From: Naegleria gruberi | Lineage: Eukaryota | Reading direction: 5' to 3' (one strand) | DNA: 64,000 bases | Assembly (NCBI GenBank): GCA_000004985.1 | Contig: GG738916.1 | Shown here: positions 6,187-35,610 of the stretch, piece by piece | Position numbering within the stretch: the stretch's first letter is position 1 | How the letters are laid out: each line of letters opens with the position of its first letter | Translations under genes and position numbers: made by a program | The notes under the pieces: generated by a model | The model's input: only the letters and a program-made list of their open reading frames with translations | The model's database searches: none | What the model was told of the DNA's origin: nothing

Positions 6187-9100
6187 NNNNNNNNNNNNNN
6201 NNNNNNNNNNNNNNNNNNNNNNNNNNNNNNNNNNNNNNNNNNNNNNNNNNNNNNNNNNNNNNNNNNNNNNNNNNNNNNNNNNNNNNNNNNNNNNNNNNNN
6301 NNNNNNNNNNNNNNNNNNNNNNNNNNNNNNNNNNNNNNNNNNNNNNNNNNNNNNNNNNNNNNNNNNNNNNNNNNNNNNNNNNNNNNNNNNNNNNNNNNNN
6401 NNNNNNNNNNNNNNNNNNNNNNNNNNNNNNNNNNNNNNNNNNNNNNNNNNNNNNNNNNNNNNNNNNNNNNNNNNNNNNNNNNNNNNNNNNNNNNNNNNNN
6501 NNNNNNNNNNNNNNNNNNNNNNNNNNNNNNNNNNNNNNNNNNNNNNNNNNNNNNNNNNNNNNNNNNNNNNNNNNNNNNNNNNNNNNNNNNNNNNNNNNNN
6601 NNNNNNNNNNNNNNNNNNNNNNNNNNNNNNNNNNNNNNNNNNNNNNNNNNNNNNNNNNNNNNNNNNNNNNNNNNNNNNNNNNNNNNNNNNNNNNNNNNNN
6701 NNNNNNNNNNNNNNNNNNNNNNNNNNNNNNNNNNNNNNNNNNNNNNNNNNNNNNNNNNNNNNNNNNNNNNNNNNNNNNNNNNNNNNNNNNNNNNNNNNNN
6801 NNNNNNNNNNNNNNNNNNNNNNNNNNNNNNNNNNNNNNNNNNNNNNNNNNNNNNNNNNNNNNNNNNNNNNNNNNNNNNNNNNNNNNNNNNNNNNNNNNNN
6901 NNNNNNNNNNNNNNNNNNNNNNNNNNNNNNNNNNNNNNNNNNNNNNNNNNNNNNNNNNNNNNNNNNNNNNNNNNNNNNNNNNNNNNNNNNNNNNNNNNNN
7001 NNNNNNNNNNNNNNNNNNNNNNNNNNNNNNNNNNNNNNNNNNNNNNNNNNNNNNNNNNNNNNNNNNNNNNNNNNNNNNNNNNNNNNNNNNNNNNNNNNNN
7101 NNNNNNNNNNNNNNNNNNNNNNNNNNNNNNNNNNNNNNNNNNNNNNNNNNNNNNNNNNNNNNNNNNNNNNNNNNNNNNNNNNNNNNNNNNNNNNNNNNNN
7201 NNNNNNNNNNNNNNNNNNNNNNNNNNNNNNNNNNNNNNNNNNNNNNNNNNNNNNNNNNNNNNNNNNNNNNNNNNNNNNNNNNNNNNNNNNNNNNNNNNNN
7301 NNNNNNNNNNNNNNNNNNNNNNNNNNNNNNNNNNNNNNNNNNNNNNNNNNNNNNNNNNNNNNNNNNNNNNNNNNNNNNNNNNNNNNNNNNNNNNNNNNNN
7401 NNNNNNNNNNNNNNNNNNNNNNNNNNNNNNNNNNNNNNNNNNNNNNNNNNNNNNNNNNNNNNNNNNNNNNNNNNNNNNNNNNNNNNNNNNNNNNNNNNNN
7501 NNNNNNNNNNNNNNNNNNNNNNNNNNNNNNNNNNNNNNNNNNNNNNNNNNNNNNNNNNNNNNNNNNNNNNNNNNNNNNNNNNNNNNNNNNNNNNNNNNNN
7601 NNNNNNNNNNNNNNNNNNNNNNNNNNNNNNNNNNNNNNNNNNNNNNNNNNNNNNNNNNNNNNNNNNNNNNNNNNNNNNNNNNNNNNNNNNNNNNNNNNNN
7701 NNNNNNNNNNNNNNNNNNNNNNNNNNNNNNNNNNNNNNNNNNNNNNNNNNNNNNNNNNNNNNNNNNNNNNNNNNNNNNNNNNNNNNNNNNNNNNNNNNNN
7801 NNNNNNNNNNNNNNNNNNNNNNNNNNNNNNNNNNNNNNNNNNNNNNNNNNNNNNNNNNNNNNNNNNNNNNNNNNNNNNNNNNNNNNNNNNNNNNNNNNNN
7901 NNNNNNNNNNNNNNNNNNNNNNNNNNNNNNNNNNNNNNNNNNNNNNNNNNNNNNNNNNNNNNNNNNNNNNNNNNNNNNNNNNNNNNNNNNNNNNNNNNNN
8001 NNNNNNNNNNNNNNNNNNNNNNNNNNNNNNNNNNNNNNNNNNNNNNNNNNNNNNNNNNNNNNNNNNNNNNNNNNNNNNNNNNNNNNNNNNNNNNNNNNNN
8101 NNNNNNNNNNNNNNNNNNNNNNNNNNNNNNNNNNNNNNNNNNNNNNNNNNNNNNNNNNNNNNNNNNNNNNNNNNNNNNNNNNNNNNNNNNNNNNNNNNNN
8201 NNNNNNNNNNNNNNNNNNNNNNNNNNNNNNNNNNNNNNNNNNNNNNNNNNNNNNNNNNNNNNNNNNNNNNNNNNNNNNNNNNNNNNNNNNNNNNNNNNNN
8301 NNNNNNNNNNNNNNNNNNNNNNNNNNNNNNNNNNNNNNNNNNNNNNNNNNNNNNNNNNNNNNNNNNNNNNNNNNNNNNNNNNNNNNNNNNNNNNNNNNNN
8401 NNNNNNNNNNNNNNNNNNNNNNNNNNNNNNNNNNNNNNNNNNNNNNNNNNNNNNNNNNNNNNNNNNNNNNNNNNNNNNNNNNNNNNNNNNNNNNNNNNNN
8501 NNNNNNNNNNNNNNNNNNNNNNNNNNNNNNNNNNNNNNNNNNNNNNNNNNNNNNNNNNNNNNNNNNNNNNNNNNNNNNNNNNNNNNNNNNNNNNNNNNNN
8601 NNNNNNNNNNNNNNNNNNNNNNNNNNNNNNNNNNNNNNNNNNNNNNNNNNNNNNNNNNNNNNNNNNNNNNNNNNNNNNNNNNNNNNNNNNNNNNNNNNNN
8701 NNNNNNNNNNNNNNNNNNNNNNNNNNNNNNNNNNNNNNNNNNNNNNNNNNNNNNNNNNNNNNNNNNNNNNNNNNNNNNNNNNNNNNNNNNNNNNNNNNNN
8801 NNNNNNNNNNNNNNNNNNNNNNNNNNNNNNNNNNNNNNNNNNNNNNNNNNNNNNNNNNNNNNNNNNNNNNNNNNNNNNNNNNNNNNNNNNNNNNNNNNNN
8901 NNNNNNNNNNNNNNNNNNNNNNNNNNNNNNNNNNNNNNNNNNNNNNNNNNNNNNNNNNNNNNNNNNNNNNNNNNNNNNNNNNNNNNNNNNNNNNNNNNNN
9001 NNNNNNNNNNNNNNNNNNNNNNNNNNNNNNNNNNNNNNNNNNNNNNNNNNNNNNNNNNNNNNNNNNNNNNNNNNNNNNNNNNNNNNNNNNNNNNNNNNNN

Positions 9101-9990
9101 NNNNNNNNNNNNNNNNNNNNNNNNNNNNNNNNNNNNNNNNNNNNNNNNNNNNNNNNNNNNNNNNNNNNNNNNNNNNNNNNNNNNNNNNNNNNNNNNNNNN
9201 NNNNNNNNNNNNNNNNNNNNNNNNNNNNNNNNNNNNNNNNNNNNNNNNNNNNNNNNNNNNNNNNNNNNNNNNNNNNNNNNNNNNNNNNNNNNNNNNNNNN
9301 NNNNNNNNNNNNNNNNNNNNNNNNNNNNNNNNNNNNNNNNNNNNNNNNNNNNNNNNNNNNNNNNNNNNNNNNNNNNNNNNNNNNNNNNNNNNNNNNNNNN
9401 NNNNNNNNNNNNNNNNNNNNNNNNNNNNNNNNNNNNNNNNNNNNNNNNNNNNNNNNNNNNNNNNNNNNNNNNNNNNNNNNNNNNNNNNNNNNNNNNNNNN
9501 NNNNNNNNNNNNNNNNNNNNNNNNNNNNNNNNNNNNNNNNNNNNNNNNNNNNNNNNNNNNNNNNNNNNNNNNNNNNNNNNNNNNNNNNNNNNNNNNNNNN
9601 NNNNNNNNNNNNNNNNNNNNNNNNNNNNNNNNNNNNNNNNNNNNNNNNNNNNNNNNNNNNNNNNNNNNNNNNNNNNNNNNNNNNNNNNNNNNNNNNNNNN
9701 NNNNNNNNNNNNNNNNNNNNNNNNNNNNNNNNNNNNNNNNNNNNNNNNNNNNNNNNNNNNNNNNNNNNNNNNNNNNNNNNNNNNNNNNNNNNNNNNNNNN
9801 NNNNNNNNNNNNNNNNNNNNNNNNNNNNNNNNNNNNNNNNNNNNNNNNNNNNNNNNNNNNNNNNNNNNNNNNNNNNNNNNNNNNNNNNNNNNNNNNNNNN
9901 NNNNNNNNNNNNNNNNNNNNNNNNNNNNNNNNNNNNNNNNNNNNNNNNNNNNNNNNNNNNNNNNNNNNNNNNNNNNNNNNNNNNNNNNNN
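6187..9990. other. N-run (3804 nt): assembly gap or masked sequence
   Basis: Continuous n characters. Confidence 0.95.
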
Positions 9991-10495: not shown

Positions 10496-12739
10496 ATGCC
10501 AACAACATCAACTCCTCACAAACGATATTCCACCTCCTTGATTTCTACTGAACTATTTCTTCTAACGATTGCTTGTTTCATTATTCTTCTTTGCTTCACA
10601 TGCAATACAATTGCCAACACAACCAAGAGCTCTTCACAATATTCTTCCCGCCTTTTAACCAAGCAACACATCAGCAACAAGAATAAAAAATTACATCAAC
10701 AACAAGATATTGCACCACATGCTTCCTCCATCACACCACAGGAAGCGCTAGACCTTTCAGCACCACCACTCAAATGTTTNNNNNNNNNNNNNNNNNNNNN
10801 NNNNNNNNNNNNNNNNNNNNNNNNNNNNNGTGTTTACGTGTATGGAAGATTGGTATTTTCTACTTCGTCCAAAGTTGTTGTCTTCAATTCAGCCCAAGCA
10901 ATTCTTCTCACCCAACAAGAACTCGAGGAGTTTACCATTGTGAATGTTCGAGATTTGCTGCTGAATATTGTTTCATTGGATAAGAGTCAGGTATTATCTG
11001 CCGTTCAATCACTAAAGAAGAAATTGAACAAGGCAGATGTGGACGATTATGTCCATCTATCCAGTTCCTACTTGGCAACCTCTCGTAGACAACAACCCAA
11101 GCGACCAACATCATTGGAAGAGGATGATTTGGTTGTATCCATCTCTGAAGGTTTATTGAACATGTCCATTCCTCTCTTGGACCAAGTTAGAACCAATACA
11201 ATCAATGATACCAATGTGTTGAGAGGTGTTGCTAGTGATATTCTCAACTGTTCATCCATATTGTTGGGTTCTGGTTTGAGTGTGAATGCTAGTGCAATAA
11301 GAAGAAATTCACACAACTCTAATATTAGGAATACCATCTATTCATCAGCATCATTGCTCTCACTTATTAGAGCACTCGAATCAACAACAACAACAATCAA
11401 GGTAGAAAATAGTGCTTTCAATTTAATTGTTTCTCATCAGCCAGACATGCAACTTGGTGAGACTCAAGTCCAAGTGCCATCATCTCTTCTCTCCAGTGAC
11501 AATATTGATTTCACACTCGTTACCTATTCTAGTGGGATCGACTTTGAATTGCTACCAGATAGTAATACCACTGGTTTACGTTCTGCTGCCAATATTGTAG
11601 AGCTGAGAAGATTAGTTGATGGTGAATATGATCCTCTTAGTGAGTTACAAAATCCAATAATACTCTCCTTTCCATTTTTCAACAACCTTACAATATTTAA
11701 CAGCAATTTTACACAAAATTTCACTTGCCGATACTATAATACAACAACCAGTGGATGGAGGACAAATGGATGTAAATTGGTCGGCAAGGATGACAAGTTT
11801 ATTACTTGCTCTTGTGATCATACAACAAGCTTTTCAGCATTTGTGGAATATTATCCAATAACAACAGATCCAACAACAGATCCCAACAATCCTACAAACT
11901 CAACAAGTCCTACCAACAAGAACACTGCTCTCAAGGCATTGGATAGTGGTCTGGTCATTTTCAAGATTGTCATTTCTGGTATTCTACTTTTGCTGATAGT
12001 ATCTGTAATGGTTGGTCTTATCATTTTCAGAAAGATGCAACCTGTGAAAAGCAGATACATCTTCCCATTTGTTGGATTGATTGCCCTGTTTGTTGATTTG
12101 GCATTTACTGGTATTGCTTCTAAAGCAGCTACTATTAATGTGCCACTCGATGAGCTAGTCTCTAGCAATAACACTCCAAACATTATCAATAGTATTAGCT
12201 TGGTTGTAACAACAAGTTTGACTGCTGTGGCTATTTGCTCTTACATGGTAGTGTGTATTAGATATATAATGTACAGATACTACTATCAGTGGATGTCGGC
12301 AGTAATTTCTCAAAAGTTAGAAAAGGCAACTAGTAGAGGAATTCGTCTTTTCAAGAATAATACCATCCTATTGGTGTCTGTATTTGCATTGGGTATTTCT
12401 ATTATTGCTTACTTTGTTATGCTTGTTATTTTGAGAAGAACTGACCAAATGAATGCAAAACAATTCTCCTATTCCTCATCAATTTCTCACTTTTTGATCA
12501 TGATAAGCTTCTTGATAGTGATTGGTATTGTTTATATGATTGATTTGATAATGGATTTCAGAACCAGACAAATTTCTGATGAGTTGCACGACATTTCCAA
12601 TGAAATTAATTCTACACAACAAAACACTAAAGGAACAATGGTGACCACTTTTAAGAAGGAAAATACTGCTTTTGTTGCATCTGCCAAATTGAAGCAATTA
12701 TTTGGAAAGAATAGTGCTCCATCTAAAATCTATCACTAA
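10496..12739 (+). CDS. GPS-motif (GAIN-type) multipass membrane receptor, adhesion-GPCR-like; contains a 50-nt N gap at 10780-10829.
   Basis: CRYYNTTTSGWRTNGCKLVGKDDKFITCSCDHTTSFSAFV fits the GPS pattern C-x-C-x-H-x-T-x-F-A-V. It is followed immediately by several long hydrophobic helices (LVIFKIVISGILLLLIVSVMVGLIIF, IFPFVGLIALFVDLAFTGIA, ...). N-terminal signal/anchor, with an N/S/T-rich ectodomain. Confidence 0.6.
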   Translation: MPTTSTPHKRYSTSLISTELFLLTIACFIILLCFTCNTIANTTKSSSQYSSRLLTKQHISNKNKKLHQQQDIAPHASSITPQEALDLSAPPLKCXXXXXXXXXXXXXXXXXXVYVYGRLVFSTSSKVVVFNSAQAILLTQQELEEFTIVNVRDLLLNIVSLDKSQVLSAVQSLKKKLNKADVDDYVHLSSSYLATSRRQQPKRPTSLEEDDLVVSISEGLLNMSIPLLDQVRTNTINDTNVLRGVASDILNCSSILLGSGLSVNASAIRRNSHNSNIRNTIYSSASLLSLIRALESTTTTIKVENSAFNLIVSHQPDMQLGETQVQVPSSLLSSDNIDFTLVTYSSGIDFELLPDSNTTGLRSAANIVELRRLVDGEYDPLSELQNPIILSFPFFNNLTIFNSNFTQNFTCRYYNTTTSGWRTNGCKLVGKDDKFITCSCDHTTSFSAFVEYYPITTDPTTDPNNPTNSTSPTNKNTALKALDSGLVIFKIVISGILLLLIVSVMVGLIIFRKMQPVKSRYIFPFVGLIALFVDLAFTGIASKAATINVPLDELVSSNNTPNIINSISLVVTTSLTAVAICSYMVVCIRYIMYRYYYQWMSAVISQKLEKATSRGIRLFKNNTILLVSVFALGISIIAYFVMLVILRRTDQMNAKQFSYSSSISHFLIMISFLIVIGIVYMIDLIMDFRTRQISDELHDISNEINSTQQNTKGTMVTTFKKENTAFVASAKLKQLFGKNSAPSKIYH

Positions 12740-13210: not shown

Positions 13211-15718
13211 NNNNNNNNNNNNNNNNNNNNNNNNNNNNNNNNNNNNNNNNNNNNNNNNNNNNNNNNNNNNNNNNNNNNNNNNNNNNNNNNNNNNNNNNNN
13301 NNNNNNNNNNNNNNNNNNNNNNNNNNNNNNNNNNNNNNNNNNNNNNNNNNNNNNNNNNNNNNNNNNNNNNNNNNNNNNNNNNNNNNNNNNNNNNNNNNNN
13401 NNNNNNNNNNNNNNNNNNNNNNNNNNNNNNNNNNNNNNNNNNNNNNNNNNNNNNNNNNNNNNNNNNNNNNNNNNNNNNNNNNNNNNNNNNNNNNNNNNNN
13501 NNNNNNNNNNNNNNNNNNNNNNNNNNNNNNNNNNNNNNNNNNNNNNNNNNNNNNNNNNNNNNNNNNNNNNNNNNNNNNNNNNNNNNNNNNNNNNNNNNNN
13601 NNNNNNNNNNNNNNNNNNNNNNNNNNNNNNNNNNNNNNNNNNNNNNNNNNNNNNNNNNNNNNNNNNNNNNNNNNNNNNNNNNNNNNNNNNNNNNNNNNNN
13701 NNNNNNNNNNNNNNNNNNNNNNNNNNNNNNNNNNNNNNNNNNNNNNNNNNNNNNNNNNNNNNNNNNNNNNNNNNNNNNNNNNNNNNNNNNNNNNNNNNNN
13801 NNNNNNNNNNNNNNNNNNNNNNNNNNNNNNNNNNNNNNNNNNNNNNNNNNNNNNNNNNNNNNNNNNNNNNNNNNNNNNNNNNNNNNNNNNNNNNNNNNNN
13901 NNNNNNNNNNNNNNNNNNNNNNNNNNNNNNNNNNNNNNNNNNNNNNNNNNNNNNNNNNNNNNNNNNNNNNNNNNNNNNNNNNNNNNNNNNNNNNNNNNNN
14001 NNNNNNNNNNNNNNNNNNNNNNNNNNNNNNNNNNNNNNNNNNNNNNNNNNNNNNNNNNNNNNNNNNNNNNNNNNNNNNNNNNNNNNNNNNNNNNNNNNNN
14101 NNNNNNNNNNNNNNNNNNNNNNNNNNNNNNNNNNNNNNNNNNNNNNNNNNNNNNNNNNNNNNNNNNNNNNNNNNNNNNNNNNNNNNNNNNNNNNNNNNNN
14201 NNNNNNNNNNNNNNNNNNNNNNNNNNNNNNNNNNNNNNNNNNNNNNNNNNNNNNNNNNNNNNNNNNNNNNNNNNNNNNNNNNNNNNNNNNNNNNNNNNNN
14301 NNNNNNNNNNNNNNNNNNNNNNNNNNNNNNNNNNNNNNNNNNNNNNNNNNNNNNNNNNNNNNNNNNNNNNNNNNNNNNNNNNNNNNNNNNNNNNNNNNNN
14401 NNNNNNNNNNNNNNNNNNNNNNNNNNNNNNNNNNNNNNNNNNNNNNNNNNNNNNNNNNNNNNNNNNNNNNNNNNNNNNNNNNNNNNNNNNNNNNNNNNNN
14501 NNNNNNNNNNNNNNNNNNNNNNNNNNNNNNNNNNNNNNNNNNNNNNNNNNNNNNNNNNNNNNNNNNNNNNNNNNNNNNNNNNNNNNNNNNNNNNNNNNNN
14601 NNNNNNNNNNNNNNNNNNNNNNNNNNNNNNNNNNNNNNNNNNNNNNNNNNNNNNNNNNNNNNNNNNNNNNNNNNNNNNNNNNNNNNNNNNNNNNNNNNNN
14701 NNNNNNNNNNNNNNNNNNNNNNNNNNNNNNNNNNNNNNNNNNNNNNNNNNNNNNNNNNNNNNNNNNNNNNNNNNNNNNNNNNNNNNNNNNNNNNNNNNNN
14801 NNNNNNNNNNNNNNNNNNNNNNNNNNNNNNNNNNNNNNNNNNNNNNNNNNNNNNNNNNNNNNNNNNNNNNNNNNNNNNNNNNNNNNNNNNNNNNNNNNNN
14901 NNNNNNNNNNNNNNNNNNNNNNNNNNNNNNNNNNNNNNNNNNNNNNNNNNNNNNNNNNNNNNNNNNNNNNNNNNNNNNNNNNNNNNNNNNNNNNNNNNNN
15001 NNNNNNNNNNNNNNNNNNNNNNNNNNNNNNNNNNNNNNNNNNNNNNNNNNNNNNNNNNNNNNNNNNNNNNNNNNNNNNNNNNNNNNNNNNNNNNNNNNNN
15101 NNNNNNNNNNNNNNNNNNNNNNNNNNNNNNNNNNNNNNNNNNNNNNNNNNNNNNNNNNNNNNNNNNNNNNNNNNNNNNNNNNNNNNNNNNNNNNNNNNNN
15201 NNNNNNNNNNNNNNNNNNNNNNNNNNNNNNNNNNNNNNNNNNNNNNNNNNNNNNNNNNNNNNNNNNNNNNNNNNNNNNNNNNNNNNNNNNNNNNNNNNNN
15301 NNNNNNNNNNNNNNNNNNNNNNNNNNNNNNNNNNNNNNNNNNNNNNNNNNNNNNNNNNNNNNNNNNNNNNNNNNNNNNNNNNNNNNNNNNNNNNNNNNNN
15401 NNNNNNNNNNNNNNNNNNNNNNNNNNNNNNNNNNNNNNNNNNNNNNNNNNNNNNNNNNNNNNNNNNNNNNNNNNNNNNNNNNNNNNNNNNNNNNNNNNNN
15501 NNNNNNNNNNNNNNNNNNNNNNNNNNNNNNNNNNNNNNNNNNNNNNNNNNNNNNNNNNNNNNNNNNNNNNNNNNNNNNNNNNNNNNNNNNNNNNNNNNNN
15601 NNNNNNNNNNNNNNNNNNNNNNNNNNNNNNNNNNNNNNNNNNNNNNNNNNNNNNNNNNNNNNNNNNNNNNNNNNNNNNNNNNNNNNNNNNNNNNNNNNNN
15701 NNNNNNNNNNNNNNNNNN
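13211..15718. other. N-run (2508 nt): gap immediately upstream of the internal telomere-type array
   Basis: Continuous n characters. Confidence 0.95.
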
Positions 15719-16197: not shown

Positions 16198-17043
16198 ATG
16201 ATTGGATCAAATCAAACGTATTTTTATTTCATTTTCAAGGATATGACTATTGTAGTGTATAATCATGAGAGAAATCTTGTGCAAGTAATTGATTTTTGTA
16301 AGGAAAGCGAGAAGGAAATTATTGACATATCTCGAGGTTGTACTGGAGATTGTGCCTATATTCTCACTAGGAAGCAAGATGAGTATGAACTATTGGTGGA
16401 GAAGGATGGTTGTATTGGTAAAGCAGAGATCGGCGATTTGGTAGGTCAACTGAATAATGTGAGATTTCTATCAAAATATGCTGTAGTCACAAATGATAAT
16501 AAGATTTACATTTTGGCCATGATTATTTCTCACAACCAAGGATTTAAATATAGGGAAACAACCTTTGAAAACAAATCACAAATCATACAATTGGAAAGCG
16601 GATTTGATCACTGTGTCGTTCTCACACAAGATGGAAAAGTTTATGCAATGGGAATCAATCAATATTCTCAATGTGGAATGCTTCCAGATCAATCGAATAT
16701 TGTTAGACAATTTGTTGAAATTATTCCACCAACAATGTATCATTCAAGAGTGTTGCGGATTGGATGTGGATCTACTTATACTGCTCTTCTTACAGAAAGT
16801 CATATTCTTATAGTTGGTAGATTTACTGGAAGTACAGGAACTGTGTGTAAGAATAGAATAGTCCATGCAGGTAATGGAACGCCATGGCTTGTTTCTAAAA
16901 ACTTATTTGGAATTAATGATATTTATTGTGCTGGATGGCATTTATGTGCTATTCAAACAACAGAAATCAATAAGGAAAGACTTTTTGCAAGATTGTTAAA
17001 TAATTCTCAATGGTTTTCAGATGTAGAAATTTTACTAACTTGA
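16198..17043 (+). CDS. RCC1-repeat (regulator of chromosome condensation-like) beta-propeller protein. The start may instead be the Met at 16244.
   Basis: Repeated motifs [26 protein letters not shown] and [19 protein letters not shown] are typical of RCC1 blades. The ORF begins 8 bp after the repeat array. Confidence 0.5.
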
Positions 17044-17280: not shown

Positions 17281-18379
17281 TTACATTATAAAACACCTTT
17301 TGCTTGGTTTAATTTCTTGCAGAAGTGCTGAATCTTTGGAAATTACGTTTTGTAAAATTGGCAAACTATCAACTCTATAAAATCTCTCCATTCTTACACC
17401 TTCCTCAAATATCAAATTAATATTTTCTCCTTTTTTGGCACTACTTTCCACAATACTTGTATTCAACAGTGAAAATTCCTTAATAATTAAATTAATTTCC
17501 TTTTTGAACTCGTTCAAAGTTTCGTCTCTATTTGTTTCCAATAAATCAACCTTATTAATTACAAATACAATAGGTGTATCATTCACTGGTCTTTCCTTAA
17601 TCTTGATGATGTATTCCACTCTGTGTCTGAGTGCCTTCACTGTTTCCAAATTATCCACAGAACAAACAGCAACAAAACAGTTTCCAAATGTTGTATAATT
17701 CTGTTTAAAAGCCTCAAAATCTTGATTACCAGCTAATGATTTCACAATTTCAAATCAATCATCTCATTAAATACCTACCTGTATCCATAATTTCCAATAA
17801 AGCAACTCGGTTATCCACCTGTGCTACTTTCCTATACGAATCTTCTATCGTAGGATCATATCTGAATCCAATTTAATCTATCAATGTGTAAATAACAACA
17901 TACAGATCCACAAAGATATTCACAACATAAAAAATAGTGAGAGCTGATTTTCCAACTCCCTCCTCTCCAATCACCACCATTCTATATTCCTCAGCTGCAC
18001 CATTCTTTGCATTCTTTAAAGTACCTTTCACCGTTTGAAATTTAATAAATCTGGCAAGGATAACTTTTCTCCGCAATTCTCCTCTCTTCATCAAATCAAT
18101 TTTAATTAATTCCAAATCATGAAGTGATTTCCTAGATATTGACCCCTGACATTCGTAAACTCTCCACCAAAAATCATTGAAATAATCTTGCATTTCCTTC
18201 GAGTGAGAAATCTTTTTGGAAAGTGATTGAAAATTGGCTATAAAAACAATATCGGAATGAGTTTCATGTTTTGATCGGAATAGTTTTGGATCAATTGCAA
18301 AGGAGAGAATGTGCTGATAAATTTCTGGAGGTAATGATGAAAAATTGGCCAAGAAATTAAACGGTTGTTTGATTGACAT
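17281..18379 (-). CDS. Ras-family small GTPase with an N-terminal ~130-aa F-box-like extension. Three exons: 18379..17904, 17861..17779, 17732..17281; introns of 42 and 46 nt.
   Basis: G-domain reconstructed across two GT-AG introns: ..[28 protein letters not shown]|[27 protein letters not shown]|[27 protein letters not shown]. This aligns residue-for-residue with Ras ([38 protein letters not shown], NKxD, SAK, CaaX). N-terminal [19 protein letters not shown] matches the F-box consensus. True start is the ATG at 18379; the ORF-track start is a TTG. Confidence 0.75.
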
Positions 18380-18495: not shown

Positions 18496-18567
18496 GGGGA
18501 CCAGTGGGAATCGAACCCACGGCCTCTCGCACCCAAAGCGAGAATCATACCACTAGACCATGGTCCC
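18496..18567 (-). tRNA. tRNA-Pro (anticodon UGG)
   Basis: Reverse-complement gives GGGACCATGGTCTAGTGGTATGATTCTCGCTTTGGGTGCGAGAGGCCGTGGGTTCGATTCCCACTGGTCCCC. Anticodon stem CTCGC/GCGAG with loop TTTGGGT (anticodon TGG, G37). T-arm GTGGGTTCGATTCCCAC. Acceptor GGGACCA/TGGTCCC. C73 discriminator as expected for Pro. Confidence 0.85.
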
Positions 18568-18638: not shown

Positions 18639-20549
18639 TTACAACATTTTTGAAACATGATAACCCAGTGCAAATAAACCCCATACCAGTATCACTATTT
18701 GAGACCACAACTGTATTTCCAAATACAGTGTCATTGTAATTGTTGATAACAAACTCAACAAGCAACCAACTAAGGGAGCATCCTTATATTTCCTCTTTTT
18801 TATCAGCATAAATGGCATGATAATGAACAAGAATGAAAGAAGGAGAAGAAGATATNNNNNNNNNNNNNNNNNNNNNNNNNNNNNNNNNNNNNNNNNNNNN
18901 NNNNNNNNNNNNNNNNNNNNNNNNNNNNNNNNNNNNNNNNNNNNNNNNNNNNNNNNNNNNNNNNNNNNNNNNNNNNNNNNNNNNNNNNNNNNNNNNNNNN
19001 NNNNNNNNNNNNNNNNNNNNNNNNNNNNNNNNNNNNNNNNNNNNNNNNNNNNNNNNNNNNNNNNNNNNNNNNNNNNNNNNNNNNNNNNNNNNNNNNNNNN
19101 NNNNNNNNNNNNNNNNNNNNNNNNNNNNNNNNNNNNNNNNNNNNNNNNNNNNNNNNNNNNNNNNNNNNNNNNNNNNNNNNNNNNNNNNNNNNNNNNNNNN
19201 NNNNNNNNNNNNNNNNNNNNNNNNNNNNNNNNNNNNNNNNNNNNNNNNNNNNNNNNNNNNNNNNNNNNNNNNNNNNNNNNNNNNNNNNNNNNNNNNNNNN
19301 NNNNNNNNNNNNNNNNNNNNNNNNNNNNNNNNNNNNNNNNNNNNNNNNNNNNNNNNNNNNNNNNNNNNNNNNNNNNNNNNNNNNNNNNNNNNNNNNNNNN
19401 NNNNNNNNNNNNNNNNNNNNNNNNNNNNNNNNNNNNNNNNNNNNNNNNNNNNNNNNNNNNNNNNNNNNNNNNNNNNNNNNNNNNNNNNNNNNNNNNNNNN
19501 NNNNNNNNNNNNNNNNNNNNNNNNNNNNNNNNNNNNNNNNNNNNNNNNNNNNNNNNNNNNNNNNNNNNNNNNNNNNNNNNNNNNNNNNNNNNNNNNNNNN
19601 NNNNNNNNNNNNNNNNNNNNNNNNNNNNNNNNNNNNNNNNNNNNNNNNNNNNNNNNNNNNNNNNNNNNNNNNNNNNNNNNNNNNNNNNNNNNNNNNNNNN
19701 NNNNNNNNNNNNNNNNNNNNNNNNNNNNNNNNNNNNNNNNNNNNNNNNNNNNNNNNNNNNNNNNNNNNNNNNNNNNNNNNNNNNNNNNNNNNNNNNNNNN
19801 NNNNNNNNNNNNNNNNNNNNNNNNNNNNNNNNNNNNNNNNNNNNNNNNNNNNNNNNNNNNNNNNNNNNNNNNNNNNNNNNNNNNNNNNNNNNNNNNNNNN
19901 NNNNNNNNNNNNNNNNNNNNNNNNNNNNNNNNNNNNNNNNNNNNNNNNNNNNNNNNNNNNNNNNNNNNNNNNNNNNNNNNNNNNNNNNNNNNNNNNNNNN
20001 NNNNNNNNNNNNNNNNNNNNNNNNNNNNNNNNNNNNNNNNNNNNNNNNNNNNNNNNNNNNNNNNNNNNNNNNNNNNNNNNNNNNNNNNNNNNNNNNNNNN
20101 NNNNNNNNNNNNNNNNNNNNNNNNNNNNNNNNNNNNNNNNNNNNNNNNNNNNNNNNNNNNNNNNNNNNNNNNNNNNNNNNNNNNNNNNNNNNNNNNNNNN
20201 NNNNNNNNNNNNNNNNNNNNNNNNNNNNNNNNNNNNNNNNNNNNNNNNNNNNNNNNNNNNNNNNNNNNNNNNNNNNNNNNNNNNNNNNNNNNNNNNNNNN
20301 NNNNNNNNNNNNNNNNNNNNNNNNNNNNNNNNNNNNNNNNNNNNNNNNNNNNNNNNNNNNNNNNNNNNNNNNNNNNNNNNNNNNNNNNNNNNNNNNNNNN
20401 NNNNNNNNNTGATCGGCAGTTTTTGAAATTTCTTCTAATTGTTCATTGAAAATATATCCCATTAGATACAAGAGTTGACCTAAAAGTGTTGATTTACCAC
20501 TGCCTGATTGCCCGATCAGTGAAATGGTGTGGGTTGGCTTATCGAGCAT
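18639..20549 (-). CDS. Probable ABCG-type half transporter (N-terminal nucleotide-binding domain, C-terminal membrane domain); middle hidden by the 1564-nt N-run at 18846-20409.
   Basis: The N-terminal visible part has Walker A LIGQSGSGKSTLLGQ. The C-terminal visible part ends in a hydrophobic helix (VILVWGLFALGYHV). Whether the two pieces are one gene cannot be verified through the gap. Confidence 0.4.
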   Translation of the reverse strand: MLDKPTHTISLIGQSGSGKSTLLGQLLYLMGYIFNEQLEEISKTADXXXXXXXXXXXXXXXXXXXXXXXXXXXXXXXXXXXXXXXXXXXXXXXXXXXXXXXXXXXXXXXXXXXXXXXXXXXXXXXXXXXXXXXXXXXXXXXXXXXXXXXXXXXXXXXXXXXXXXXXXXXXXXXXXXXXXXXXXXXXXXXXXXXXXXXXXXXXXXXXXXXXXXXXXXXXXXXXXXXXXXXXXXXXXXXXXXXXXXXXXXXXXXXXXXXXXXXXXXXXXXXXXXXXXXXXXXXXXXXXXXXXXXXXXXXXXXXXXXXXXXXXXXXXXXXXXXXXXXXXXXXXXXXXXXXXXXXXXXXXXXXXXXXXXXXXXXXXXXXXXXXXXXXXXXXXXXXXXXXXXXXXXXXXXXXXXXXXXXXXXXXXXXXXXXXXXXXXXXXXXXXXXXXXXXXXXXXXXXXXXXXXXXXXXXXXXXXXXXXXXXXXXXXXXXXXXXXXXXXXXXXXXXXXXXXXXXXXXXXXXXXXXXXXXXXXXXXXXXXXXXXXXXXXXXXXXXXXXXXXXXXXXXXXXXXXXXXXXXXYLLLLLSFLFIIMPFMLIKKRKYKDAPLVGCLLSLLSTITMTLYLEIQLWSQIVILVWGLFALGYHVSKML

Positions 20550-21802: not shown

Positions 21803-21873
21803 CTCGAGTGCCGGGAATTGAACCCGGGTCGCCAGAGTGACAGTCTGGAATGCTACCACTATACCACACCCGA
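21803..21873 (-). tRNA. tRNA-Asp (anticodon GUC)
   Basis: Reverse-complement TCGGGTGTGGTATAGTGGTAGCATTCCAGACTGTCACTCTGGCGACCCGGGTTCAATTCCCGGCACTCGAG. Anticodon stem CCAGA/TCTGG with loop CTGTCAC (GTC). T-arm CCGGGTTCAATTCCCGG. Closely parallels animal tRNA-Asp. A T5 run follows the 3' end (Pol III terminator). Confidence 0.85.
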
Positions 21874-29585: not shown

Positions 29586-30725
29586 ATGACCAAGAATAAT
29601 TCTTCCGAAGATATTACTGAATATTATGATGATCCAACTATTTTGAATGAAAAATTGGATGAATTGGCCCAATTGCTCCAATCATCAAAACATGTTGTCT
29701 TTTATACAGGTGCTGGTATTAGTACTTCTGCAGGTATTTCTGATTTTAGAGGACCTAATGGTATTTGGACAATGAAAGAGAAGGGAATGAAGGCAAAAGC
29801 TTCTTCATCAACTATTAAGCTCCCAACTCCAACTCACATGGCCATTGCAACATTGTATCAGAGAGGAATGATCAAGTATGTGACTAGTCAGAATGTGGAT
29901 GGTTTGCATGTGAAATCTGGATTTAGTAGAAAGGATATTTCAGAATTGCACGGAAATACCAATGTTGAGCTATGTAAAAATTGTAATTGTGAATATTTGA
30001 GAACTTTTAGATGTAGAAATGCAGAACATGTGCATGATCACAAGACTGGAAGAATGTGTGAACATTGTGGACATGAATTGGAGGATAGTATTATCAATTT
30101 TGGAGAAAATTTACCTGAAGATCAATTGGATAGAGCAGAATTGAATGCCAAGAAGGCAGATTTGGCCATCGTTTTGGGAACCTCATTGAGAGTGAGCCCA
30201 GCATGTGACTTGCCTGAAATGTGTTTAAAGAAGGGAGGTAAAATGGTGATTGTAAACTTGCAAAAGACTCCAAAGGATAAAAAGTCATCACTGAGAATTT
30301 TTGCCAAGACTGACGATGTCATTAATGGAATAATGGAAAGATTATCACTCTCCATTCCATCCTATGTATTGAAATCAGAATTTACTCTTGGAGCTACTGA
30401 AAAGGAAGAAAAATCAATATTTGGAAATATTAGAAGAAAGATTGGAGTTTCATTGACCTCACCAATTAAGGGTGCTAGAATATTGTCAGAACTGGAAATG
30501 AGATTGGTATGTGAAAAGAAGATTTTAAAGTATACCACTCCAACTATTGATGAAATTCCACAAGATTGTAAAAAGGTAGTAGCCAGATTGAGCTTTAATT
30601 TAGATCCAAAATTTGGCAAGGAAGCTGAATGTGAATTGGTGTTGGACAATCCACATTCATCAAAGACATTCTTCATCAATGTCGATACTTCTGATAATTC
30701 AGTGCAAGTAACTGAAGCTTTGTAA
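29586..30725 (+). CDS. NAD-dependent protein deacylase, sirtuin class IV (SIRT6/7-like)
   Basis: VVFYTGAGISTSAGISDFRGPNGIWT and HGNTNVELCKNCN..C (zinc ribbon) and GTSLRVSPA are sirtuin catalytic-core motifs. Confidence 0.85.
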   Translation: MTKNNSSEDITEYYDDPTILNEKLDELAQLLQSSKHVVFYTGAGISTSAGISDFRGPNGIWTMKEKGMKAKASSSTIKLPTPTHMAIATLYQRGMIKYVTSQNVDGLHVKSGFSRKDISELHGNTNVELCKNCNCEYLRTFRCRNAEHVHDHKTGRMCEHCGHELEDSIINFGENLPEDQLDRAELNAKKADLAIVLGTSLRVSPACDLPEMCLKKGGKMVIVNLQKTPKDKKSSLRIFAKTDDVINGIMERLSLSIPSYVLKSEFTLGATEKEEKSIFGNIRRKIGVSLTSPIKGARILSELEMRLVCEKKILKYTTPTIDEIPQDCKKVVARLSFNLDPKFGKEAECELVLDNPHSSKTFFINVDTSDNSVQVTEAL

Positions 30726-32564: not shown

Positions 32565-32930
32565 TCGGGTGTGGTATAGTGGTAGCATTCCAGACTGTCA
32601 CTCTGGCGACCCGGGTTCAATTTGTTTTGTTAGTGTGTGGGTAATAGTTGAATGATATCGGTCATTCCTTATTTGGAAATTTCATTCCCGGTACCCATGG
32701 TATGAACGAGAGTTTTGGTTGTTAATCATTTCTCGAGTGGTTTGGATGAAGTTACAGTTATGAATAATTATCAAGGAATTGGAGACACAATACTACAATA
32801 ATAATGTGTTTATTAAATGTTAATTTAGCGTCACGGTGATTACTCTGTGTTTTTATAATTTAATNNNNNNNNNNNNNNNNNNNNNNNNNNNNNNNNNNNN
32901 NNNNNNNNNNNNNNTATTCCGGCACTCGAG
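32565..32930 (+). pseudogene. Second tRNA-Asp(GUC) copy split in the T-loop. 5' portion 32565-32622 (through GGGTTCAATT). 3' portion 32917-32930 (TTCCGGCACTCGAG plus T5 terminator). About 294 bp of unrelated sequence including a 50-N gap lies between.
   Basis: 58/58 identity to the intact tRNA-Asp at 21803-21873 up to the T-loop. After the N-run, the T-stem 3' strand and acceptor 3' strand reappear with the same T-rich 3' flank. Confidence 0.7.
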
Positions 32931-35100: not shown

Positions 35101-35389
35101 CTTGTTGGGGATGTGATTTGTTTTTTTTCTTCAATCATTTCAATGTAAAAGTTGAAATGTGGAAAGTTAAAGTTCCAGATTAGAATAACCGTACATTGCG
35201 GCCTTAGAAAACCGCTCCAAATTAGTAAGATTCAATGATTGAACATGATTGAATGGCTTAGCACAGCATGTGTCTCCGCCAAGTTTTTAACTTGAGGAAA
35301 ACTAAGGAAGTCTTTGAATTTCAATGCTATTAAAAATAGCAGTGTTAAGAGAGAGCAGTACTTCAAAGAAAGAGATTAAAATGCTAAAA

Positions 35390-35477
35390 GGCGACTGAGG
35401 GAATTGAACCCTCGACCCTCAGTTATCTCAGCATTTCTGCCTACAAGACTGATGCACTGCCACTGTGCTAAGCCGCC
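35390..35477 (-). tRNA. tRNA-Thr (anticodon UGU) with a 17-nt intron at the canonical 37/38 position
   Basis: Reverse-complement GGCGGCTTAGCACAGTGGCAGTGCATCAGTCTTGTA[GGCAGAAATGCTGAGAT]AACTGAGGGTCGAGGGTTCAATTCCCTCAGTCGCC. Acceptor GGCGGCT/AGTCGCC. D-arm GCAC..GTGC. Anticodon stem TCAGT/ACTGA with loop CTTGTA|A. T-arm GAGGGTTCAATTCCCTC. Confidence 0.7.
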
Positions 35478-35610
35478 TTACGAAGATTTTATATACAACA
35501 TTTTATGTCGATGTTATGTTCTTTAGAAAATCTACAACCACCTTCATCAATCCACCAATAATTATTTTCAAATGTTGGTTGTAGTGGAATGACTTGTTGG
35601 ATAAAATTTA

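Follow-up and report, generated by a model that had tools for sequence, protein, structure and literature searches.

Does Naegleria gruberi encode a Ras-type GTPase that is tied, within one polypeptide, to the SCF ubiquitin ligase, and can this GTPase still switch itself off? These questions are raised by a minus-strand gene at positions 17281-18379 of the window, i.e. the whole stretch of 64,000 nucleotides of contig GG738916.1 that was analysed, for which an earlier note had proposed an F-box-like N-terminus in front of a G domain with GTPase-dead substitutions. The reading favoured here, with modest confidence, is that of a Ras GTPase anchored to the membrane via a farnesylated CaaX box, which would belong to a heterolobosean clade characterized by a helical module of about 125 residues that starts in a strongly diverged F-box.

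A Three-Exon Ras Gene

The Ras-family gene combines exons of 476, 83 and 452 nt into a 1011-nt in-frame coding sequence for 336 amino acids. Its features are as follows:

17904..18379, minus strand: exon 1, with the ATG at 18379-18377; a single uninterrupted ORF for residues 1-158, comprising the N-terminal extension and β1, P-loop and α1 of the G domain
17862..17903, minus strand: intron 1, 42 nt, GTATGT...CAG, phase 2, between IFVDL and YDPTIED
17779..17861, minus strand: exon 2, 83 nt, switch region as far as LEIMDT(A)
17733..17778, minus strand: intron 2, 46 nt, GTAGGT...TAG, phase 1, within the Ala codon of DTAG
17281..17732, minus strand: exon 3, remaining G domain, conserved C-terminal tail, CFIM and TAA stop
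17987..18379, minus strand: N-terminal extension, residues 1-131, predicted to be all-helical
18278..18334, minus strand: F-box-like H1 motif, residues 16-34
18215..18259, minus strand: putative divergent equivalent of F-box H2-H3, residues 41-55, by transitive alignment only
17945..17968, minus strand: P-loop GEEGVGKS, residues 138-145, with Ras A11 and G12 both changed to E
17725..17785, minus strand: switch II DTAGN, residues 185-189, spanning intron 2, with N189 (position of Ras Q61) at 17725-17727
17545..17556, minus strand: G4 motif NKVD, intact
17434..17442, minus strand: G5 motif SAK, intact
17284..17295, minus strand: CaaX box CFIM (17281-17295 with the stop codon), preceded by the basic residues KPSKR

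Coordinates, GT..AG borders and reading frame of the previously proposed three-exon model with its 42- and 46-nt introns were all verified. Without splicing, the exon-1 frame runs into a stop codon within intron 1, and splicing is hence needed for a complete G domain; the two remaining frames of the coding sequence contain 20 and 33 stops. Removal of intron 1 restores the Ras switch-I sequence, while the second junction yields DT(A)/GNQD; in a paralogue (P0127), genomic read-through breaks at the site of intron 2 (...ILDT/GKFLK). A search for the spliced junction 1 in metagenome contigs returned 0 matches and is uninformative.

The spliced 336-aa product is letter-for-letter identical to XP_002670370.1 (EFC37626.1, UniProt D2VZT3), a "ras family small GTPase" of N. 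gruberi NEG-M. The three-exon model thus matches the public annotation, and gene and intron-exon structure are, judged by this identity, already published; that the gene might be unannotated was ruled out by the same exact sequence look-up. In the full-length homology search, the top identity was 51%, the best full-length homologue reached 48%, and the protein's own database entry was missing from the results. Probably, the self-match is hidden by its 90% cluster, whose representative is a 154-aa exon-3 fragment (Logan/ENA).

The surrounding DNA is ordinary, gene-dense Naegleria sequence with an RCC1-repeat ORF, tRNAs, cofilin, SET, RGS, SIR2, UDP-glycosyltransferase and GPS-motif proteins. 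The SIR2 ORF (29586-30725) is 100% identical to an N. gruberi protein from the same contig as XP_002670370.1, and the adjacent cofilin is XP_002670371.1. Further elements of the window are:

18496-18567, minus strand: tRNA-Pro(UGG), same strand as the Ras gene, 116 nt upstream of its ATG
35388-35478, minus strand: tRNA-Thr(UGU), 91 nt, exceeding the standard tRNA length
21803-21873: tRNA-Asp(GUC), standard length
16198-17043, plus strand: RCC1-repeat ORF, 281 aa, converging on the Ras gene, stop codons 237 nt apart
10496-12739, plus strand: ORF with GPS (GPCR proteolysis site) motif, 747 aa
27060-29312, plus strand: RGS-domain ORF, 750 aa
862-4885, 6187-9990, 13211-15718 and 18856-20409: four long N runs (1.5-4 kb)
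10780-10829 and 32865-32914: two 50-N gaps, with 11,990 N overall in the window

Owing to the tRNA-Pro gene 116 nt upstream, only a very short AT-rich spacer is left for a promoter and 5' UTR of the Ras gene. Exact look-ups of neighbouring ORFs and of homologues, made to trace contigs that encode them, gave no entry. The tRNA-Thr(UGU) gene probably contains an intron. The exact product of the RCC1-repeat ORF was absent from the protein collection searched, and the public model of this gene probably differs, for example, by introns or extra exons. The N run at 18856-20409 interrupts a minus-strand ORF (18639-20549), whose N-terminal P-loop GQSGSGKST resembles that of a translation-type GTPase. 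The GPS and RGS ORFs are G-protein-signalling genes near the Ras gene; adhesion-GPCR-like proteins of Naegleria have been catalogued by Herman et al. (PMC8296547).

The G Domain and Its Catalytic Positions

Residues 133-300 match the Ras family model PF00071 with 99.3 bits (E 2.3e-28), far above the curated cut-off of 21.6. Among PDB entries, Rap1b (E 8e-31) and K-Ras (E 6e-30) are its best relatives, and the product can be aligned with both H-Ras and Rap1b without gaps. All five signature motifs are present, i.e. G1 (GxxxxGKS), G2 (T35), G3 (DxxG), G4 (NKxD) and G5 (SAK). The elements that bind nucleotide and Mg are intact (K144/S145, T163, D185/G188, NKVD, SAK), and the effector loop YDPTIEDSY is identical to that of Ras/Rap. 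At the C-terminus, CFIM is followed by the stop codon, and the Met in the X position of this CaaX box predicts farnesylation. The earlier description of a canonical Ras-like G domain with a C-terminal CaaX box is therefore well founded.

The segment that connects G domain and CaaX box (residues 300-332, about 17296-17480) carries a pattern, VR..R.G..D....LK.VI..D..., that is conserved throughout the family, unlike the usually hypervariable C-terminus of Ras. This segment may pack against the N-terminal module.

What the G domain lacks are the catalytic Gly12 and Gln61, in whose place E140 and N189 are found. The alignments with H-Ras and Rap1b equate E139/E140 with Ras positions 11/12 and N189 with position 61, in agreement with the equivalences assigned before. 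Intrinsic as well as RasGAP-stimulated hydrolysis is crippled when Ras carries anything but Gly or Pro at position 12, or almost anything but Gln at position 61. Hydrolysis can nonetheless proceed by another route: Rap, which has no Q61 by nature, is inactivated by RapGAPs through an Asn provided in trans, and GAPs of this type neither require Q61 nor lose their activity on Rap G12V. As likeliest, we infer a slow-hydrolysing, largely GTP-bound state for XP_002670370.1. Yet, since its G domain resembles Rap1 no less than K-Ras and RapGAPs work without Q61, a dead GTPase is not assured, and hydrolysis could be catalysed in trans by a RapGAP-type GAP. Of the earlier claim of a GTPase-dead, constitutively GTP-bound protein, both substitutions are thus real, while "dead", plausible as a deduction from the sequence, is overstated.

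The N-Terminal Extension

The earlier note had described the start of the extension as F-box-like and suggested a comparison with F-box profiles, the outcome of which depends on whether the single protein or its family is considered. Against the F-box-like model PF12937, XP_002670370.1 scores 12.0-14.8 bits (E 0.024-0.18) over profile positions 1-19 of 47 and thus falls below the Pfam gathering cut-off of 24.3 bits. Among 23 scanned family members, however, 13 match PF12937 (best E 9.9e-6) and 9 match PF00646, with further matches to the PRANC, F-box_4 and F-box-like_2 models; matches by more than two of the 23 are confined to F-box models, and any unrelated family accounts for one member at most. 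The best full-length member from Willaertia magna reaches 21.7 bits (E 1.8e-4) with an F-box profile.

Family profiles were further compared via hhalign with ten F-boxes, each of which scores above the Pfam thresholds. Eight of these were Skp2, Fbw7, beta-TrCP, Cdc4, TIR1, cyclin F, FBXO2 and FBXL2, and the other two were one Naegleria F-box-Rab protein from Table S8 of Herman et al. (PMC8296547) and the plant F-box repeat P0142, itself taken from a search hit. The profile of the Willaertia-type members aligned with this set over 38 columns that cover H1-H3 with a 10-residue insertion (94.9% probability, E 4.5e-8), while the alignment of the Naegleria type, to which XP_002670370.1 belongs, comprised 23 columns and H1 only (about 92-94%, E 1e-7 to 7e-7). 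When columns were permuted as a control, 149 of 150 runs reached scores of at most 17.5, compared with the observed 42.2 and 37.1; the remaining one (score 131 over 5 and 13 columns for the two queries) was disregarded as a numerical artefact. Although H2-H3 (..L..V[CS]K.W..L..) could not be aligned directly in the subfamily of XP_002670370.1, where the conserved Trp is absent, its residues 41-55 can be matched to the Willaertia-type segment FVKTINNLYLVNKQFNE and this segment, for its part, to LLKVSGVCKRWYRLA of the F-box. With the Willaertia type as intermediate, residues 41-55 would hence correspond to the H2-H3 segment by transitivity.

The first helix of XP_002670370.1 contains the pattern L-P-x-E-[IL]-x-x-x-I-[LF]-x-x-L, i.e. 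the Skp1-contacting core of F-boxes. Four residues of the extension do not vary across 18 Naegleria-type members, namely P in LP, I in HIL, W in FWW and R in KRK, and L and E in LPxE reach at least 90% conservation, so that the F-box signature belongs to the most constrained portions of this region. Among 1.84 billion proteins, the sole credible match of the extension profile outside the family is a plant multi-F-box/LRR protein, aligned at its F-boxes. Another match, the G-patch repeat protein P0131, was rejected as spurious and repeat-summed. A comparison with the Naegleria F-box-Rab-like proteins gave no evidence for a shared module, as only H1 aligns with these (85% and 26% probability).

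Structure prediction gave a less F-box-like picture. With an alignment of 28 sequences, AlphaFold2 produced an all-helical model of residues 1-131 (pLDDT 84, pTM 0.75; a model from 9 sequences was unusable with a pLDDT of 49.6), in which residues 37-53 form a single continuous helix in place of the H2-turn-H3 of a canonical F-box. Foldseek comparison of the extension model with PDB and BFVD yielded no matches, and fold searches with it returned nothing F-box-specific. Likewise, a search of PDB sequences with the extension profile found no F-box protein, the sole chance match being a terpene synthase (E 0.26).

Conceivably, the extension is a lineage-specific helical domain, the first helix of which resembles that of an F-box without binding Skp1, for instance, an autoregulatory or dimerisation element that packs on the G domain or the tail. 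XP_002670370.1 would then be an atypical Ras protein that hydrolyses GTP slowly and has no link to ubiquitination. The missing F-box-specific fold match would suit such a domain, as would the sub-threshold Pfam match to merely the first 19 of 47 profile positions and the resemblance, limited to H1, to those F-box extensions that Pfam recognizes in Naegleria Rab-like GTPases. Moreover, the extension has conserved motifs of its own that are foreign to F-boxes, FWW and (M/L)KRK, with invariant W and R. A helix that merely resembles H1 is, however, difficult to reconcile with the Skp1-contacting signature L-P-x-E..I being among the most conserved positions, with Willaertia-type members aligning to F-boxes over H1-H3, and with a genome in which F-box-GTPase fusions are rampant, those that Pfam detects numbering in the dozens (PMC8296547). 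We regard a helical domain of this kind as somewhat unlikely, though it is the alternative that fares best. The earlier F-box reading is thus supported only in the sense of divergent homology, carried by the family profiles and the H1 signature, while the score of XP_002670370.1 stays below the Pfam threshold. Altogether, the extension is probably homologous to the F-box and strongly diverged from it; that Skp1 binding has been retained can be predicted only tentatively.

A Clade of Extended Ras Proteins

The architecture of extension, Ras domain and C-x-x-M is common to homologues from N. gruberi, N. fowleri, N. lovaniensis and W. magna. A homology search located further N. gruberi proteins of this kind, as had been suggested for the same genome: XP_002668509/XP_002673033 (48% identity over 93% of the length), XP_002669149/XP_002669123 and XP_002673059; no further paralogue lies within the window. 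Other homologues include XP_044551453 of N. lovaniensis, XP_044559755 of N. fowleri and KAL9647497 of Willaertia magna. When 1.84 billion cluster representatives were searched exhaustively with the extension profile using HMMER, 28 proteins were matched at E<1e-3, each representing one 50%-identity cluster, and 26 of the 28 are family members; many of the matches are genomic fragments ending near an intron. In total, the extension is kept in at least 25 Ras paralogues and homologues from four species of Naegleria and Willaertia, and C-x-x-M occurs in every full-length member. In the searches made, the clade with this extension was found only in these two heterolobosean genera.

Two types of extension can be distinguished by their patterns, LPxEIxxHILSF...FQSLNKK...YFNxFWW...MKRKxLL in the Naegleria type and LPDEIICHIL...INNLYLVNKQFNE...FYKDLL in the Willaertia type, which are homologous to each other (hhalign 93.5%, 83 columns). 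They also differ at the catalytic positions of the G domain. All Naegleria-type members have replaced Q61 (by N, P, L, H or S), and the Willaertia-type members retain Q, so that loss of the catalytic Gln is a trait of the clade and not peculiar to XP_002670370.1. Glu at position 12 occurs, among the family members compared, only in XP_002670370.1 and XP_002673059. This pattern fits either a hydrolysis cycle that was abandoned by the family or relaxed constraint.

If constraint has been relaxed, XP_002670370.1 might be one copy of a birth-and-death family that is decaying or drifts neutrally, and G12E and Q61N would not represent a designed GTP lock. Catalytic positions indeed vary widely between paralogues, and recent birth-and-death turnover with pseudogenes has been described by Herman et al. 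(PMC8296547), but for Rab-like clades. The closest paralogue found, XP_002669178.1 (53% identity; sequence from Table S8), begins with MEDYFNEFWW and thus lacks the F-box H1 helix; its switch II reads DTAGP, and the same table marks it as a putative pseudogene (PMC8296547), which points to ongoing birth-and-death evolution in its subclade. XP_002670370.1 itself carries no such flag in Table S8 (PMC8296547), its frame of 336 codons is intact over three exons with canonical splice sites, and nucleotide-binding motifs, effector loop and CaaX box are all preserved. For this protein, drift is hence very unlikely. That F-box-like region and G domain might instead be separate genes or transcripts, a scenario raised in the earlier note, can practically be dismissed, because exon 1 alone holds the whole extension and the P-loop in one continuous ORF from Met1 through α1 (residues 1-158), and the same fusion is kept in the at least 25 homologues from four species.

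A Possible Link to the SCF Ligase

If the extension is a diverged F-box in front of a farnesylated Ras domain, as favoured here, the following mechanism can be envisaged. The G domain would still bind guanine nucleotide, since K and S of G1, T35, D57/G60, NKxD and SAK are intact. As G12 and Q61 are missing, both intrinsic hydrolysis and hydrolysis stimulated by an Arg-finger GAP would be very slow, and the protein would be mostly GTP-bound. The L-P-x-E-I...I-L helix could then dock on Skp1 and thereby tie the GTPase to an SCF (Cul1) ligase. Two outcomes are conceivable. Either the GTPase itself would be short-lived and turned off by degradation in place of hydrolysis, or YDPTIEDSY, its Ras effector face, would bring partners to a membrane-located ligase. 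Extended to the family, this would mean that at least 25 farnesylated Ras paralogues are membrane-bound, nucleotide-gated SCF substrate receptors or self-destructing switches, and that in the Naegleria type, which lacks G12/Q61, F-box-driven proteasomal turnover replaces hydrolysis. In this far-reaching form, the proposal is speculative and unlikely to hold as a whole.

Relation to Known GTPase Fusions

Several known systems share individual aspects with XP_002670370.1. Rnd3/RhoE, RhoH and kappaB-Ras are constitutively GTP-bound, carry substitutions at the equivalents of Ras positions 12/61 and are controlled by expression or degradation, but are stand-alone GTPases without a ligase-adaptor domain. 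FBXL2/FBXL20 and yeast Rcy1 are F-box proteins that are tethered to membranes by C-terminal prenylation; in contrast to XP_002670370.1, they have LRRs or a Sec10-like region for substrate binding and no GTPase domain. RhoBTB is a fusion of a small GTPase with a cullin adaptor, in which an atypical Rho domain is combined with BTB domains, and represents the functional analogue of a GTPase that forms part of a cullin-RING ligase. It differs in employing BTB and Cul3 instead of F-box, Skp1 and Cul1, in the C-terminal position of its adaptor domains and in the absence of a CaaX box. RhoBTB is also named in the study of Naegleria GTPases by Herman et al. (PMC8296547).

In this study (Herman et al. 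2021, BMC Biol, PMC8296547, Supplementary Material 4), more than 350 Ras-superfamily genes of N. gruberi were re-annotated, and F-box-GTPase fusions emerged as the most frequent novel GTPase architecture in Naegleria, involving Rab-like, Rho, Ran and Galpha GTPases. Three divergent Rab-like clades bear N-terminal F-box extensions, one of them together with a CaaX box, and "GTPase-dependent ubiquitination" was proposed by the authors (PMC8296547). These fusions occur in the same organism and have the order of F-box, helical linker of about 60-100 aa and Ras-superfamily G domain that is proposed here for XP_002670370.1. Their F-boxes, however, are detectable by Pfam/SMART, whereas the candidate F-box of XP_002670370.1 lies below the thresholds and shares only H1 with the Rab-like proteins. 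Table S8 contains 72 "F-box" flags, yet XP_002670370.1 and its paralogues are listed as plain "Ras" with an empty column for additional domains (PMC8296547); the table names XP_002670370.1 by accession only, and motif strings are absent there. Presumably, this silence is due to SMART, Pfam and CDD missing the divergent F-box.

A further precedent comes from the Euglenozoa, where TbFRP of trypanosomes combines FYVE, F-box and a Ras-like GTPase (PMC3593210). Its authors considered the F-box as a possible turnover device and found no orthologue in N. gruberi (PMC3593210). TbFRP differs from the Naegleria Ras proteins in that an N-terminal FYVE domain, which attaches it to membranes via PI3P, takes the place of the CaaX box, and in that the nearest relative of its G domain is Rab18. 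The two are probably independent fusions. The view that this architecture is without parallel in characterised families, as put forward in the earlier note, can therefore not be upheld, given the F-box-GTPase fusions of Naegleria (PMC8296547) and the FYVE-F-box-GTPase of Euglenozoa (PMC3593210). The new point is rather the candidate cryptic F-box in the Ras clade proper, where an F-box has probably not been reported before. Also new is that XP_002670370.1 is substituted at both position 12 and position 61.

Taken together, these results at present amount to a refinement of annotation, in that one Ras clade probably carries, as its N-terminal extension, a divergent F-box missed by SMART, Pfam and CDD. 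If this cryptic F-box is functional, the set of F-box-GTPases in Naegleria would extend to the Ras family proper, with about two dozen genes added. A Ras switch without its catalytic residues would then be wired to a cullin-RING ligase, as a Cul1 counterpart of the RhoBTB/Cul3 system.
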